Source of the DNA: an uncultured Anaerolineales bacterium
GTDB taxonomy: Bacteria; Chloroflexota; Anaerolineae; Epilineales; JAANWY01
Direction: 5' to 3'
NCBI GenBank assembly: GCA_964532665.1
Contig: CAZHMV010000001.1
Coordinates: 103,742-167,741, forward strand
Length of the DNA: 64,000 bases
Under the pieces are notes generated by a model. It had not been told where the DNA came from. It made no database searches and saw only the letters and a program-made list of their open reading frames with translations. The position numbers and the translations under genes are program-made. Positions 14,946 through 54,625 of the stretch are shown here, piece after piece. The first letter of the stretch is position 1. Each line of letters opens with the position of its first letter.

Positions 14946-15674
14946 ATGAATGTGTTAGTGTTATCAGATATTCATGCAAACCTGGCTGCCCTCAATCAGG
15001 TACTGGATGAAGTAGGTGACGTTGATACAATTTGGTGTCTGGGGGATGTGGTGGGCTATGGACCGGAGCCTAATGCCTGCATAGATCGGCTGCGGGAATT
15101 GCAGCCGGAGTTTTGGTTGGCTGGCAACCATGATTGGGCGGCGCTGGGAAAACTGGACACCTCGGACTTTAACCCCATGGCCAGACTGGCAGCCCTGTGG
15201 ACGCGGCATCAGTTGACGCCCGACAACATGGCTTGGCTGGACACGCTCCCGGCTATTGTGAGGGCTTCAGATCAGTTTACCCTGGCTCATGGTAGCCCCC
15301 GCCATCCAATCTGGGAATACGTTCTTAACGCCCGGGCTGCAGCGGCCAACTTCGCTCACTTCGACACGCCCTACTGCCTGGTGGGGCACACACACGTTCC
15401 GGCAATCTACCGACAGCAGAATGGTCGTGTGGACGTGCCGGCCTTCATGCTGGGGGAACCGATCCAACTGCCCAACGGGCGCGTTATCATCAACCCTGGC
15501 GGTGTGGGGCAGCCACGCGATGGTGACCCTCGGGCAAGCTATCTCATCCTCGATACCGAGGCGCTGACGGCAACCTATCACCGGGTAGCGTATCCCATCC
15601 AGGAAACGCAAGCGAAAATGACGGAGGCCGGCCTGCCGTCCCGCCTGATCACGCGCCTGAACTACGGGTGGTGA
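14946..15674 (+). CDS. Metallophosphoesterase, PPP family (PrpE/ApaH-like)
   Basis: Motifs LSDIHAN, GDVVGYG and GNHD. Confidence 0.7.
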   Translation: MNVLVLSDIHANLAALNQVLDEVGDVDTIWCLGDVVGYGPEPNACIDRLRELQPEFWLAGNHDWAALGKLDTSDFNPMARLAALWTRHQLTPDNMAWLDTLPAIVRASDQFTLAHGSPRHPIWEYVLNARAAAANFAHFDTPYCLVGHTHVPAIYRQQNGRVDVPAFMLGEPIQLPNGRVIINPGGVGQPRDGDPRASYLILDTEALTATYHRVAYPIQETQAKMTEAGLPSRLITRLNYGW

Positions 15675-15681
15675 CCAGGAG

Positions 15682-15781
15682 CAGTAGTCAGTGATCAGTA
15701 ACCAGTGATCAGTAACCAGTGATCAGTGATCAGTACCCAAGACCTGATGACTGATGACCGATCACTGGTCACTGATTACTG
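15682..15781. repeat. Heptamer-periodic hairpin element, CAGTGAT/CAGTAAC family
   Basis: cagtgatcagtaaccagtgatcagtaacc... followed by the inverted arm ...gatcactggtcactgattactg. Confidence 0.8.
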
Positions 15782-15787
15782 AAACAG

Positions 15788-15828
15788 ACGCCCAGTGGAA
15801 CATCACTGGGCGTTTGTGCGTTTTGTGG
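15788..15828 (+). terminator. Rho-independent terminator downstream of the metallophosphoesterase gene
   Basis: Stem ACGCCCAGTG/CACTGGGCGT with loop GAACAT, followed by TTTGTGCGTTTTGTGG. Confidence 0.65.
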
Positions 15829-32947: not shown

Positions 32948-33005
32948 AGAAGATCCTCCTCACACAAATTGCAGATGACTGTCAGCATTATACCATAAAT
33001 CGGGG

Positions 33006-33051
33006 AAGAAAAAAAGGCCCGACAGGGCCACAAAAGTGTTTCCTGTCGGGC
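33006..33051 (-). terminator. Rho-independent terminator downstream of rplY
   Basis: Minus-strand stem GCCCGACAGG...CCTGTCGGGC followed by TTTTTTTC. Confidence 0.7.
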
Positions 33052-33084
33052 AGGACGCTTAAAGTTTGCTGCTGGTTCCCTCTC

Positions 33085-33178
33085 GTGATCACCAGTCATC
33101 AGTATTCAGTGATCAGTATTCAGTGGACAGTTTCCGATGACCGATCACTGATGACTGATCACTGATTGTCGGTCTCTT
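33085..33178. repeat. Heptamer-periodic hairpin element, CAGTGAT family; overlaps the last codons of rplY
   Basis: gtgatcaccagtcatcagtattcagtgatcagtattcagtg...ccgatcactgatgactgatcactgattg. Confidence 0.8.
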
Positions 33179-33812
33179 CGGCTGCTCCAGGTTCCACTGC
33201 CTCCGGAACGACCTCTTCCTCTAGAACCTCTTCTTCGGCCTCCGCGCGCTCCATCTCAGCATAGCCGATGCGGACGATCATTTCGTCGGGGTCGGTGAGC
33301 ACGGTGATTGAATCAGGCAGATCCAGGTCTCGCACGAAAACCGCGTCATCGACTTCTTCCAGACCGGAGATGTCGATAGTGATGGAGGGAATCAAGTCGG
33401 TGGGCAGGGCCTCAATCTCAATCGCATCCAGTGCCTGATTAACCATGGCGTCGCCGCGCTCAACAATAGCAGGTGTTCCTTCGAGGTGGAGGGGGACCTC
33501 GCTGGTGATGGTCTCAGTAAGCACGACCTCCTGAAAGTCAACGTGCAACAGACTGCGGGTGATCACGTCGCGCTGGACATCGCGGGCCAGCGTGATATGC
33601 CGCTTCCGGTCCCCTTTGATTTTCAGGGAGATCAGACGGTTGGCGCCGGCCCGCCGAAGGACGGTAGAAAGGTGTCGAGCGTTGATCTGTACCGGAATCG
33701 GGTCGATTTCAGCACCATAGATGATACCCGGCACCAGACCCTGCCTCCGGAGACGCTTGACTTTCTTGCCAATCATTTCGCGCTTCTCAGCGGTGAGTTC
33801 AATCTGCTCCAT
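33159..33812 (-). CDS. rplY: 50S ribosomal protein L25 / general stress protein Ctc
   Basis: The start is taken at MEQIELTAEKRE (GAAGGAGC RBS). L25 beta-barrel followed by an acidic C-terminal tail. The track start is 33938. Confidence 0.8.
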   Translation of the reverse strand: MEQIELTAEKREMIGKKVKRLRRQGLVPGIIYGAEIDPIPVQINARHLSTVLRRAGANRLISLKIKGDRKRHITLARDVQRDVITRSLLHVDFQEVVLTETITSEVPLHLEGTPAIVERGDAMVNQALDAIEIEALPTDLIPSITIDISGLEEVDDAVFVRDLDLPDSITVLTDPDEMIVRIGYAEMERAEAEEEVLEEEVVPEAVEPGAAEETDNQ

Positions 33813-34050
33813 AAGTCTGTGTGCTCCTTCGCTACGGTCTGTCCTGGGGGCCCTCCTGAGGCCCATCCCCAGGTCCCTCCCGAGCTTGTCGAGGGACCTG
33901 TCGAGGGGCTCGGCGAAGAACTCAGTACAGCCTGGCACAAACGTGCCCTGACCAGACGCAGGACGGTCAGGGCATCGTGCATCATACTGACGAAAACTGC
34001 AGCTAACATTATAGCATGTGTGGGTCTGCCGTGCAAATTGACCCTACGTA

Positions 34051-52462: not shown

Positions 52463-53149
52463 ATGCCGAAAACAATTCTGGTGGTGGATGACGAAAAACA
52501 GTTACGCACATTGGTGAAGGCCTACCTGACGCAGGAGGGATTCCGAGTCGTGACCGCCGCTGATGGGCGGGAAGCTCTGTTTGTGGCGCGGCATGAGAAG
52601 CCAGACCTCATCATCCTCGACCTGATGATGCCAGAAATGGACGGGTATGAATTCATGCGCGTCTACAGCAAGGAACGGGAGACCCCCGTGATCATGCTGA
52701 CTGCCAAAGTTGAAGAAAACGACAGAGTTCTGGGGTTGGAACTGGGGGCAGATGACTACGTCACAAAGCCGTTCAGCATGCGCGAACTGGCGGCGCGAGT
52801 GCGGGCCGTGCTACGTCGCGCCGGCAGTCCCTTGCCCGATTCGGAAATCCTGCGTGCCGCTGACATTACACTTGACCGGGCCAATCACGTTGTCACCGTG
52901 AGCGACAGGCACGTCGATCTCACGCCCACCGAGTTTGACCTGCTGGCCATCCTGATGGCGGCGCCAGGGCGCGCCTTCTCTCGCTTTGACCTGCTCGACC
53001 GGTTGCAGGGCACCGCCTTTGACGGATACGAACGCACCATCGACGTCCACATCCGAAATCTGCGCTCCAAGCTTGAACCGGACCCACGCCATCCACGCTA
53101 CGTTGAGACGGTTTTTGGGGTCGGGTATCGGTTTACGGCTGGTGGTTAG
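52463..53149 (+). CDS. OmpR-family response regulator
   Basis: Receiver domain (DDEKQLR...DLMMPEMDG) plus a winged-helix trans_reg_C domain. Confidence 0.9.
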   Translation: MPKTILVVDDEKQLRTLVKAYLTQEGFRVVTAADGREALFVARHEKPDLIILDLMMPEMDGYEFMRVYSKERETPVIMLTAKVEENDRVLGLELGADDYVTKPFSMRELAARVRAVLRRAGSPLPDSEILRAADITLDRANHVVTVSDRHVDLTPTEFDLLAILMAAPGRAFSRFDLLDRLQGTAFDGYERTIDVHIRNLRSKLEPDPRHPRYVETVFGVGYRFTAGG

Positions 53150-53164: not shown

Positions 53165-54625
53165 ATGATTCGCTCACTGGCTCTTAAGCTCACCCTGGCT
53201 TTTCTCGTGGTTGCGGTTATGGGCACCGTGCTGGTGGCCTTGTTCGTCGGGCAGCGAACGCAGGATGAGTTTGGCCGGTTCGTCCTCGACCGATACCGGG
53301 CGGATGTTGTCACCGAGTTGGCCGCGTACTACGAGAAGAATGGGAGTTGGGAGGGAGTAGATGCCATCGCGGTCCGTGATCTCGGTGGGCACCCTGGTCG
53401 GTGGGGGCCGGGTTGGGTACGGGTAACGCTCATTGATGCGCACAGCAAGGTTGTTTATGGCGAGTCACGTTACCGCGTGGGAGAGCAGGTGCCCCGGTCT
53501 GACAGCAATCACAGCCTGCCGATTCGGGTGAATGATGAAACGGTTGGTTGGTTGCTGTTCGATTCGTTTAGAGCCAGGGGGCGCCTGCTACCAGGTTCAC
53601 CTGAGTCAGCTTTCCTGGCAAGGGTGACGCGCGCCATCACCTTTGGCACCCTGGGAGCCATGGTGATTGCGTTGCTACTGGGTGTCTTGCTGGCGCGCAC
53701 CATCTCGCGTCCAGTTCGTGAATTGACGGCCGCCACACAACTCGTGGCGCAAGGGGAGCTGGGGCTTCAGGTACCTGTTCGCACCAAGGACGAGTTGGGT
53801 GAACTGGCTGCCTCGTTCAACCAGATGAGTGCAGACCTGGCGCATTCGAATCAGTTGCGCCGGCACATGACGGCCGACATCGCCCACGAACTGCGGACGC
53901 CCCTCAGCGTGATCCTGGGCTACACGGAAGCGTTGAGCGACGGCAAGCTGCAAGCCACACCGAAGACGTTTAGCATTTTGCACGACGGGGCGAAACACCT
54001 CAGTCGCCTGGTCGAGGATCTGCAGACGCTGGCGCTGGCAGATGCCGGCGAGTTGTCGCTAACTCGCCGGCCTGTTGATCCCAGAGTGTTGCTGGAACAC
54101 GCGGCGTCGGCTTACATGGGGCGCGCCGAGGAGAAGGGCATCTCGCTAAGCGTCGAGGCTGCACCGGATTTGCCGGAGGTCGAGGTTGACCCCGATCGGA
54201 TGGCGCAAGTGCTGGGCAATTTGCTGACCAATGCGCTGCGCCACACACCGGCCGGCGGGCGAGTCACTATGCAGTGTTCAGTCATCAGTCAACAGTTAGC
54301 AGTAAACAGTGATCAGTCATCAGTGATCAGTAACCAAACTGCTGCGGACGGCAAACTGATTACTGATAACTGTTTACTGATTACTGTCACGGACACCGGC
54401 ACCGGCATTGCCCCCGAGGACCTACCCCACGTTTTTGAACGCTTCTATCGCGGGGACAAGTCGCGCCAGAGGCAGGAAGGGGAGTCGGGACTGGGGCTGG
54501 CGATTGCCAAATCGATTGTGCAGATGCATGGTGGGAGCATTGCCGTTGACAGTACGCCTGGCGAAGGCACGACTTTCACCATCGTTTTGCCGGCCGAACC
54601 GGGTCCCCCTGACGGTGAGGTATAG
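53165..54625 (+). CDS. Sensor histidine kinase (2 TM, HAMP, HisKA, HATPase_c) carrying an in-frame repeat insertion in the ATPase domain
   Basis: H-box HELRTPLSVILGY, N-box LLTNALRHT, G1 DTGTGI and G2 GLGLAIAKSIV. Confidence 0.85.
   Translation: MIRSLALKLTLAFLVVAVMGTVLVALFVGQRTQDEFGRFVLDRYRADVVTELAAYYEKNGSWEGVDAIAVRDLGGHPGRWGPGWVRVTLIDAHSKVVYGESRYRVGEQVPRSDSNHSLPIRVNDETVGWLLFDSFRARGRLLPGSPESAFLARVTRAITFGTLGAMVIALLLGVLLARTISRPVRELTAATQLVAQGELGLQVPVRTKDELGELAASFNQMSADLAHSNQLRRHMTADIAHELRTPLSVILGYTEALSDGKLQATPKTFSILHDGAKHLSRLVEDLQTLALADAGELSLTRRPVDPRVLLEHAASAYMGRAEEKGISLSVEAAPDLPEVEVDPDRMAQVLGNLLTNALRHTPAGGRVTMQCSVISQQLAVNSDQSSVISNQTAADGKLITDNCLLITVTDTGTGIAPEDLPHVFERFYRGDKSRQRQEGESGLGLAIAKSIVQMHGGSIAVDSTPGEGTTFTIVLPAEPGPPDGEV
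54272..54390. repeat. Heptamer-periodic hairpin element (CAGTGAT family) inserted in-frame between the N-box and G1-box of the histidine kinase
   Basis: It encodes QCSVISQQLAVNSDQSSVISNQTAADGKLITDNCLL. Confidence 0.8.

Follow-up and report, generated by a model that had tools for sequence, protein, structure and literature searches.

How does a hairpin-forming repeat of a kind that belongs to gene ends come to lie in frame within the catalytic domain of an enzyme, and does selection then act on the protein or on the nucleic acid? This question is raised by a sensor histidine kinase gene (positions 53165-54625, plus strand) in a 64,000-nucleotide stretch of contig CAZHMV010000001.1 from an uncultured Anaerolineales bacterium, the whole of which we call the window. 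The gene, taken from the list of open reading frames (ORFs), encodes 486 amino acids (aa) with two transmembrane helices and HAMP, HisKA and HATPase_c domains, and its host belongs to the Anaerolineae (Chloroflexota). A preliminary description, made from the letters alone, had noticed a hairpin repeat of the CAGTGAT family within the ATPase domain, between the N box and the G1 box; its coordinates, its intact reading frame and the encoded peptide (QCSVISQQLAVNSDQSSVISNQTAADGKLITDNCLL) are confirmed by our analysis. We consider it probable that a translated palindrome of heptamers has replaced the tip of a β-hairpin in this kinase and that selection on the segment acts mainly at the level of the nucleic acid.

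A palindrome of heptamers in one open frame

The element (54265-54389) is composed of ten CAGTNNN heptamers, a 20-nt spacer and five ACTG heptamers, all within HATPase_c between the N box and the G1 box. Its left arm (54265-54334, plus strand) consists of the units CACTATG, CAGTGTT, CAGTCAT, CAGTCAA, CAGTTAG, CAGTAAA, CAGTGAT, CAGTCAT, CAGTGAT and CAGTAAC, the first of which, CACTATG in the window, is CAGTATG, CAGTATT or CAGTTTA in the other carriers of the insert. The spacer or hairpin loop region, CAAACTGCTGCGGACGGCAA (54335-54354, plus strand), is the same in the related locus L002 and differs in the carrier locus L003 solely by a synonymous A-to-G change in its first codon. The right arm (54355-54389, plus strand) is made of ACTGATT, ACTGATA, ACTGTTT, ACTGATT and ACTGTCA and is complementary to the left arm, with inverted repeats between the arms (I1-I7) of up to 33 nt at 88% complementarity. 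The ten plus five units follow each other head to tail and in register, and no two adjacent units in the window kinase copy are identical. With a GC content of 0.45-0.51, the element stands out from surroundings of about 0.62. The RNA fold of the kinase segment reaches -45.7 kcal/mol (z = -4.5), and none of 200 shuffles was as stable, in agreement with the long stem in the mRNA proposed earlier. The repeat length had also been given as about 115 bp and as a multiple of three: the element defined by its heptamers measures 125 nt, which is not a multiple of three, whereas the exchange of coding sequence, 114 nt for 36 nt, does fit that claim.

Two other interpretations of the kinase copy were considered and rejected. 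A role as intrinsic terminator does not fit a stem that lacks a T-run downstream, and a terminator scan found nothing. The GTCAC present at both ends in the window resembles a target-site duplication; it is part of the outermost stem and does not occur as a single site in the empty alleles. Matches to Rfam families at gathering score were absent from the entire 64-kb window.

The window holds three sibling copies. If one mismatch is allowed, CAGTNNNCAGTNNNCAGT has 38 occurrences in the window where 0.15 would be expected, and these fall into four clusters. Besides the kinase copy these are i) E1 (15682-15781), which starts 7 nt past the stop of ORF 14946-15674, ii) E2 (33093-33164), located at the stop (33159-33161) of the minus-strand ORF 33159-33938 and iii) E4 (58899-59011), which lies between convergent ORFs and overlaps the stops at 58902-58904 (plus strand) and 58992-58994 (minus strand). 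Each sibling is closed in six frames, and the 18 frames contain 1-5 stops each. The kinase copy, in contrast, is open in one of six frames, with 2-7 stops in the other five and none in the frame used. Elements of this type normally sit at gene ends in this genome, and the earlier view that a repeat of non-coding type has entered the kinase is borne out by the closed siblings. In random arrays of ten plus five units drawn from this genome's heptamers, a given frame was open in 1.7% of trials, so that the open frame of the kinase copy is a selected property rather than the default.

The surroundings of the siblings have further features. E1 is followed by a separate G+C-rich hairpin with a T-run (15782-15825) on the strand of the upstream gene, and E2 by a terminator-like G+C-rich hairpin with a T-run on the minus strand at about 33005-33055. 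Both copies share the order of stop codon, heptamer hairpin and intrinsic-terminator-like hairpin. E4 supplies or overlaps the stops of ORFs 57660-58904 (plus strand) and 58992-62312 (minus strand), and its insertion may have reshaped the C-termini of both convergent ORFs.

Exchange of a turn between the N box and the G1 box

As homologue set we used the best 120 matches to the window kinase. Three of them carry the insert and 117 have a short turn, which supports the lineage specificity that the preliminary description had assumed. The carriers are P0001 (94% identity to the window kinase; NCBI metagenome-assembled genome (MAG) GCA_046756905.1), P0002 (84%; ENA) and P0005 (65%; JGI). P0003 (73%) and P0004 (70%) are without the insert and have the same membrane-fusion-protein (MFP) gene 3' of the kinase, with a response-regulator gene upstream in the P0004 locus. 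A protein search with the 91 aa that surround the insert yielded nothing beyond short fragments and an identical one (P0121), without adding carriers, and a metagenome scan for the right junction ACTGATTACTGTCACNGAYACNGG gave two chance matches on an unrelated low-GC contig. Several other homologues (P0006-P0011, P0016, P0018 and others) are insert-free with a turn that is 7 residues longer (e.g., SAEHRPGTGVARPGSLYIRV), G+C-rich and devoid of the heptamer signature.

Codon comparison with the insert-free loci L005 and L006, together with the protein alignment, places 38 codons (Q370-T407; 54272-54385, plus strand; 114 nt) where these orthologues have 12 (36 nt). The insert-free orthologues read GG-EITL-SAEFRPSVVRLR-VRD-TG and the window kinase GG-RVTM-QCSVIS...NCLLIT-VTD-TG. 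The net gain over them is 26 residues; of the earlier statement that about 36 residues were added, the peptide is correct and the size of the addition is not. Kinases in the PDB have 7 (SrrB, against 33 here) or 3 residues (VicK, against 29 here) at this site. Homologues differ naturally in the length of this spacer from N box to G1 box, which usually has 21-22 and at most 58 residues.

An AlphaFold2 model built from the 121-sequence alignment has a mean pLDDT of 82, and Foldseek relates it to crystal structures of DHp-CA modules, e.g. 4u7o (TM 0.86). Two strands are predicted at residues 366-375 (RVTMQCSVIS) and 402-410 (NCLLITVTD), with a block pLDDT of 85-98. The 26-residue net extension, residues 376-401 (54290-54367, plus strand), is predicted as a low-confidence tip loop of a short helix plus coil, with a pLDDT of 51-56 that drops below 50 at residues 384-391. 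According to the model, the outer palindrome arms would encode the distal strand halves QCSVIS and NCLLIT, and the inner part would form a floppy tip. In the model, the element thus supplies not just a loop, formed by the inner 26 residues, but also two strand halves, formed by the outer arms. The position of the insertion appears to fit the host fold, as the predicted Bergerat fold is kept and the tip of the hairpin is extended.

From these data the following course of events can be proposed. In an ancestral Anaerolineae kinase, a copy of the palindrome (CAGTNNN)n - spacer - (NNNACTG)n, of the type found at gene ends in this genome, would have replaced the tip of the β-hairpin by which the N-box helix is connected with the G1-box strand and would have been translated from then on. 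Its outer heptamers may have become the distal halves of two antiparallel strands, and the inner heptamers together with the spacer a flexible surface loop of about 26 residues. Variants that survived would have been those free of stops and those whose length changed by three heptamers (21 nt, equal to 7 codons).

The arms of the carriers fit this course. Left and right arms comprise 10/5 heptamers in the window and L002, 7/8 in L003 and 7/5 in L004, and all arm-length differences equal three units (21 nt, 7 codons). In L003, broken-core units ACCGATT fall exactly where ACTGATT would give an in-frame TGA. A unit length that is not a multiple of three and a heptamer number that has changed over evolution could also point to a phase-variation locus, at which slippage by 7 nt switches the kinase off and on, and heptanucleotides, which outnumber all other long simple repeats of bacteria, have been tied to slippage (Mrazek 2007 via PMC4679880). 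We regard this as very improbable, as the units are heterogeneous and the window copy is devoid of identical neighbours, which disfavours slippage of single units, the observed steps are of 21 nt only, and the CAGT-type insert at this site is in frame in six of six sequenced kinases that contain it.

The gene around the insert looks functional. Pfam matches cover HAMP (1e-16), HisKA (4e-15) and HATPase_c (5e-31), and the H, N, G1, F and G2 boxes of a HisKA-type kinase are present in the DHp plus HATPase_c architecture. Invariant in the 121-sequence alignment are H241, N352 and N356 of the N box (NLLTNALRHT, residues 352-361; 54218-54247, plus strand), D410, G412 and G414 of the G1 box (DTGTGI, residues 410-415; 54392-54409, plus strand), F424, and G442 and G444. 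Outside the insert, dS is 0.41 between window and L002, 0.59 between window and L003 and 1.17 between window and L004, and dN/dS amounts to 0.10-0.20 for every pair, carrier pairs included (carrier dS 0.41-1.47). Such low ratios at these distances indicate that the insert has long been carried by a functional gene. Judged from the sequences, the kinase appears to tolerate the insert, as had been supposed, and still to evolve as a working gene.

A dead kinase is at odds with the intact frame, the invariant catalytic motifs and these dN/dS values. Mis-assembly deserves mention because assemblers are known to have difficulty with repeats and hairpins. However, the exact window protein was also found on a JGI metagenome contig, and the same insert is present in four independent assemblies (JGI 3300023507, NCBI GCA_046756905.1, ENA ERZ27248470 and JGI 3300037479) from different samples and pipelines, with orthologous variation between them, and therefore is not an assembly artefact, a possibility named in the preliminary description. 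Both explanations have a negligible probability.

Constraint on the nucleotides and history of the insert

To compare the insert with the rest of the gene, we used the share of synonymously differing codons among codons that encode the same residue. Between window and L002, the insert has synonymous differences in 0/38 codons compared to 83/329 (25%) elsewhere (p = 5e-5), and the 38-40 codons on each flank are near normal (7/38 and 4/39). The corresponding values are 2/29 compared to 34% in the rest for window and L003 (p = 0.0015), and 0/13 compared to 53% for L003 and L004 (p = 8e-5). Only two differences separate the inserts of window and L002, and both are non-synonymous. In all four carriers the GC content at third codon positions (GC3) is 0.46 in the insert and 0.67-0.72 in the rest of the gene, which means that amelioration has not taken place and that the A/T-ending codons have not drifted to host usage. 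The hairpins of the carriers have folding energies of -46.6, -50.4, -73.9 and -42.2 kcal/mol (z -5.5 to -12.5), in comparison to z values of +1.0 and -1.2 for the matching region of insert-free genes. By this comparative evidence, the DNA of the insert appears to be conserved more strongly than the encoded protein requires.

This pattern bears on the idea of an innovation at the protein level, according to which the extended hairpin and its loop provide a new interaction or regulatory surface. Such a gain would explain why the insert has been kept in frame over a dS of up to about 1.5, why its outer arms are placed in a β-sheet with high predicted confidence and why the same register recurs in unrelated kinases. 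Nevertheless, we consider it improbable, given the pLDDT of only 51-56 for the inner 26 residues and the free variation of these residues in length and sequence among carriers. Two non-synonymous and zero synonymous changes between the inserts of window and L002 are the opposite of protein constraint, rare A/T-ending codons are retained, and the similarity of the peptides is explained by the limited vocabulary of CAGT/ACTG heptamers.

Somewhat less improbable, although still unlikely, is that the element is a selfish or neutral passenger in a permissive loop, with the low synonymous divergence caused by recent exchange of inserts or by gene conversion. Natural variation in loop length, the predicted disorder of the tip, carriers whose paraphyly could arise by recombination and the abundance of other small palindromic insertions in these genomes are compatible with this idea, and the palindromic elements of Rickettsia are regarded in this way (PMC10969869). 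What argues against a passenger is the confinement of the synonymous depletion to the insert: a recombination tract would span the flanks, and with near-normal flanks it is disfavoured as the source of the low divergence. In addition, the depletion persists between carriers at dS 1.2-1.5, and conversion from other copies would not keep the order of heptamers and the spacer, which are the same in window and L002. Unbiased correction from arm to arm, finally, should not slow substitution, and paired changes in the two arms were not seen.

We therefore favour selection on the nucleic acid. The nucleotides of the element would be held by a purifying selection that the protein does not explain, and a constraint beyond the protein means that selection most likely acts on the hairpin as nucleic acid or on the CAGT heptamers as such. 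Our best guess, which we infer rather than observe, is a role at the mRNA level, where the hairpin could act like its siblings at gene ends, as a decay barrier or as a processing or pausing site in the transcript of response regulator, histidine kinase and transporter.

Several points weigh against a replaced hairpin tip under selection for its nucleic acid. It is not evident how a gene would profit from a stable hairpin in its coding region, where a decay barrier would leave truncated messages. The depletion is significant in six of six carrier pairs, yet these share branches and are not independent, and the alignment of repeats may inflate identity in pairs with indels, a problem from which the comparison of window and L002 alone is free. 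A second pocket of nucleotide conservation, for which no cause is evident, is the H-box region at about 53880-53990 of the window (alignment columns 240-285), where synonymous differences are likewise few, with 3/30 for window and L002 and 3/28 for window and L003. As regards the mechanism of insertion, comparison with the empty sites L005 and L006 revealed no target-site duplication, with 36 nt replaced instead, and the structural basis is a prediction. The history, too, is not that of a simple single gain. In a neighbour-joining tree calculated without the insert region, the window kinase and P0001-P0005 are grouped with 95% bootstrap support; within the group, the carrier P0005 is basal, the insert-free P0003 and P0004 are sister to the window group, and the carriers were monophyletic in 0 of 200 bootstraps.

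A single gain followed by a later precise loss in P0003 and P0004 was considered and rejected. Their turn, ITLSAEFRPSVVRLRVRD, is of the ancestral type common to outgroups and hence was not regenerated by precise loss; the insert-free state of both could go back to a replacement, by recombination, with an allele that lacks the insert. The distribution of the insert calls either for more than one hit at the site or for recombination between the highly conserved N and G1 boxes, by which the insert, or the lack of it, was transferred. P0005 is nearer to the window than P0003 solely in sliding windows that cover the insert. With response-regulator identities as a proxy for the species tree, L004 (82.0%) and L006 (82.4%) are equally distant from the window.

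The kinase gene belongs to an operon-like cluster, in which a cognate OmpR-type response regulator (52463-53149, plus strand; Pfam Response_reg and Trans_reg_C) lies upstream and an MFP gene directly 3'. The order of regulator and kinase is kept in L002, L003, L004 and L006, and the MFP gene follows the kinase in L002, L005 and L006, with an ABC ATPase gene next in L002 and L006. The gap between regulator and kinase is 15 nt in the window compared to 235 nt in the closest relative (L002:5766-6000), where it holds a different, MITE-like palindrome with the terminal inverted repeats TTGACAATGGCACAT ... ATGTGCCATTGTCAA that is absent from the window. Between kinase and MFP gene there are 13 nt in the window, 315 nt in L002 (7471-7785) and 112 nt in L003 (2504-2615), the last with a palindrome and a direct repeat (GGTCAGGAGACCTTCGGCGATCAAAGA, twice). 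These lineages gain and lose small repeats quickly. The response regulators are 86.8% identical between window and L002 and 90.4% between L002 and L003, and the kinases of window and L002 94%; these identities hint at a mosaic ancestry of the operon.

Recurrence of the insert and known repeat systems

Further cases were found with a search that used the CA domain plus insert against 1.84 billion representatives, a design that favours inserts in the same register and gives no measure of their frequency at other sites. P0243, a 504-aa kinase with 41-46% identity to the window family, reads GGRVSLQCSVNSEQ...LFTDNCLLITVRD and has a hairpin of -76.9 kcal/mol (L130:2720-2830); an insert is also present in the fragment P0245. 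P0299 is a 1493-aa hybrid kinase with Reg_prop, Y_Y_Y, receiver and AraC domains from an organism with 49% GC (L129:6214-6320). Its insert, GGKIVVQLSVDSYQLTVISDQ...DGKLTTDNCLLITVKD, is built from CAGTTAT/ACTGATA units (equal to TAACTGA) and folds with -53.1 kcal/mol. The hairpins of P0243 and P0299, which are unrelated or distantly related kinases, occupy exactly the same hairpin between N box and G1 box in the same register as in the window kinase. Distant carriers have their own, different heptamer arrays and not an inherited segment, so that distant taxa do not share the extra segment in the sense in which the preliminary description had named this as a refutation. The likeness of the peptides across kinases is largely a result of the unit vocabulary, as ACTGNNN arrays can read nothing but x-L-x-T-[VADEG]-[YHND]-[CW]. 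Large hybrid kinases of cyanobacterial type have spacers of 40-58 residues at the same place, and P0278 (L131, residues 744-790) contains four TTGGTCA-like units and, after them, four CAAAGGA units in frame, which are two different heptamer arrays without mutual complementarity and not a palindrome. The large hybrid kinases P0269, P0294 and P0295 show peptides with a period of 7 residues in the same loop.

A scan of one genome per GTDB species with the pattern CAGTN3CAGTN3CAGT-N8-38-ACTGN3ACTGN3ACTG yielded at least 120 stretches (L007-L126). Among the matches listed are Acidobacteriota, Chloroflexota, Cyanobacteria, Bacteroidota, Planctomycetota, Verrucomicrobiota, Gemmatimonadota, Poribacteria and others. 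The core of 127 sampled elements is C-A-G-T at 90-98%, their positions 5-7 are free, the median length is 80 nt (range 58-170 nt), and the GC content is 0.46 compared to 0.56 in the hosts. Stops of long ORFs lie within 10 nt of 65% of the elements and of 8% of random positions, a weak indication only, as the elements create stops themselves and the value is inflated. Three of about 123 elements among the matches listed are in frame inside recognised domains: i) a 63-nt hairpin in the catalytic region of a leucyl-tRNA synthetase (LeuRS) of a Limisphaerales MAG (L048:542-604; NSNQCSVNSVQTENWKLNTEN), ii) a hairpin in a SAM methyltransferase domain of an Anaerolineales MAG (L054:1265-1322, minus strand; ELSVNSNQLAVTDHWSLIT) and iii) a hairpin in a PSD1/DUF1553 domain of an Akkermansia MAG (L012:6645-6722; RSSQCAVLSAQSPAGTTDHCELSTEH). 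The LeuRS hairpin is located just upstream of the conserved VDLYVGGxEHAVLHLLYARFW, and the aligned Mycoplasma LeuRS (3ziu) is shorter there.

A far-reaching interpretation would unite all CAGT-core palindromes into one largely undescribed class that spans phyla, is selected as nucleic acid even where it is translated, codes twice, for an RNA/DNA hairpin and for a protein hairpin, is generated or bound by a heptamer-specific machinery and repeatedly colonises the HATPase_c β-hairpin as well as other enzyme loops. The repeated colonisation of the hairpin would then follow from the fact that a palindrome of such units reads out as two pairable β strands. We hold this wide generalisation to be doubtful.

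The new results that we regard as firmest are the exchange of the hairpin tip for arms that serve as strands, the 21-nt steps, the avoidance of stops and the constraint on synonymous sites. To our knowledge, Rickettsia has been the main source of repeats of non-coding type in essential domains, and they are seen there as an oddity of genomes under reduction. The phenomenon now extends to free-living Chloroflexota and to a different kind of repeat, which persists through long divergence under purifying selection. It offers a tractable case of overlapping codes, in which the constraint on the DNA exceeds the need of the protein, and a handle on the purpose of heptamer repeats, unexplained since 1990. 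The unrelated kinases, the many phyla and the LeuRS case suggest that small repeats reshape protein loops by a general route that has received little study. For annotation they are a warning, as such inserts lengthen loops and can split domain matches.

Among described systems, the Rickettsia palindromic elements (RPE) come closest in behaviour; they occur in frame in many genes and were judged compatible with the fold (Ogata et al., 2000, 2002, 'protein coding palindromes', via PMC10969869). In both cases small multi-copy palindromes are found between genes as well as in frame in genes of known function, here with four copies in 64 kb of which one is in frame, and in other genomes with the LeuRS, methyltransferase and PSD1 copies. 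RPE, however, are families of about 150 bp in Rickettsiales, each with a conserved peptide, whereas the window element belongs to a Chloroflexota genome and is built from 7-nt units with a CAGT core and free triplets. Unlike RPE, it also changes length in 21-nt steps, its arms encode strands of a pre-existing β-hairpin, and its synonymous sites are constrained. Judged from its heptamer construction, homology to RPE is unlikely, and it is regarded as an analogue and not a member.

In construction, heptanucleotide arrays are the nearest relatives. Cyanobacterial STRR repeats with the units CCCCAGT, TTGGTCA and CAACAGT were reportedly described by Mazel et al. in 1990. TAACTGA repeats are known from Beggiatoaceae, Cyanobacteria and Bacteroidetes (MacGregor 2015, PMC4679880) as a single unit repeated directly, in most cases a short way upstream of start codons, with one inverted set among 170, with ORF-internal copies solely at protein ends or in hypothetical proteins, and with the translations LITDN- and SVISYQL (PMC4679880). 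Tandem 7-nt units are common to all, STRR1, STRR3 and TAACTGA (equal to ACTGATA) share the CAGT/ACTG core, and forward arrays have stops in all frames. The window element contains ACTGATA and CAGTCAA units, and its LITDN and SVIS match the MacGregor translations. It differs in that its units are mixed with only the CAGT core in common and its arrays are inverted and form a long hairpin, instead of direct repeats of a single unit. Unlike TAACTGA, its siblings follow stop codons, its host is a chloroflexote and one copy lies inside a catalytic domain. The Anaerolineae host and the many phyla of the scan also exceed the range of STRR and TAACTGA repeats, which is restricted to Cyanobacteria, Beggiatoaceae and a few Bacteroidetes.

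REP/BIME palindromes of Enterobacteria and Pseudomonas are tagged by GTAG/CGTC, lie at 3' gene ends or between convergent genes, are transcribed and are thought to stabilise the upstream mRNA or to aid termination (PMC3733652). E1, E2 and E4 resemble them in their placement at gene ends. Nevertheless, the GTAG/CGTC head is absent from all four window copies, and their arms are heptamer arrays of variable length. We know of no REPs in frame within catalytic domains. By the defining features tested, the element is neither a REP nor a MITE. In the literature we covered, which did not include subscription-only journals, neither the hairpin form nor Chloroflexota hosts nor kinase inserts are described. 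With regard to the GHKL/HATPase_c fold itself, the insert uses the turn between N-box helix and G1 strand that is already variable; in contrast to ordinary loop variation, its extra length has an identifiable non-protein origin, and its nucleic-acid properties have been kept.

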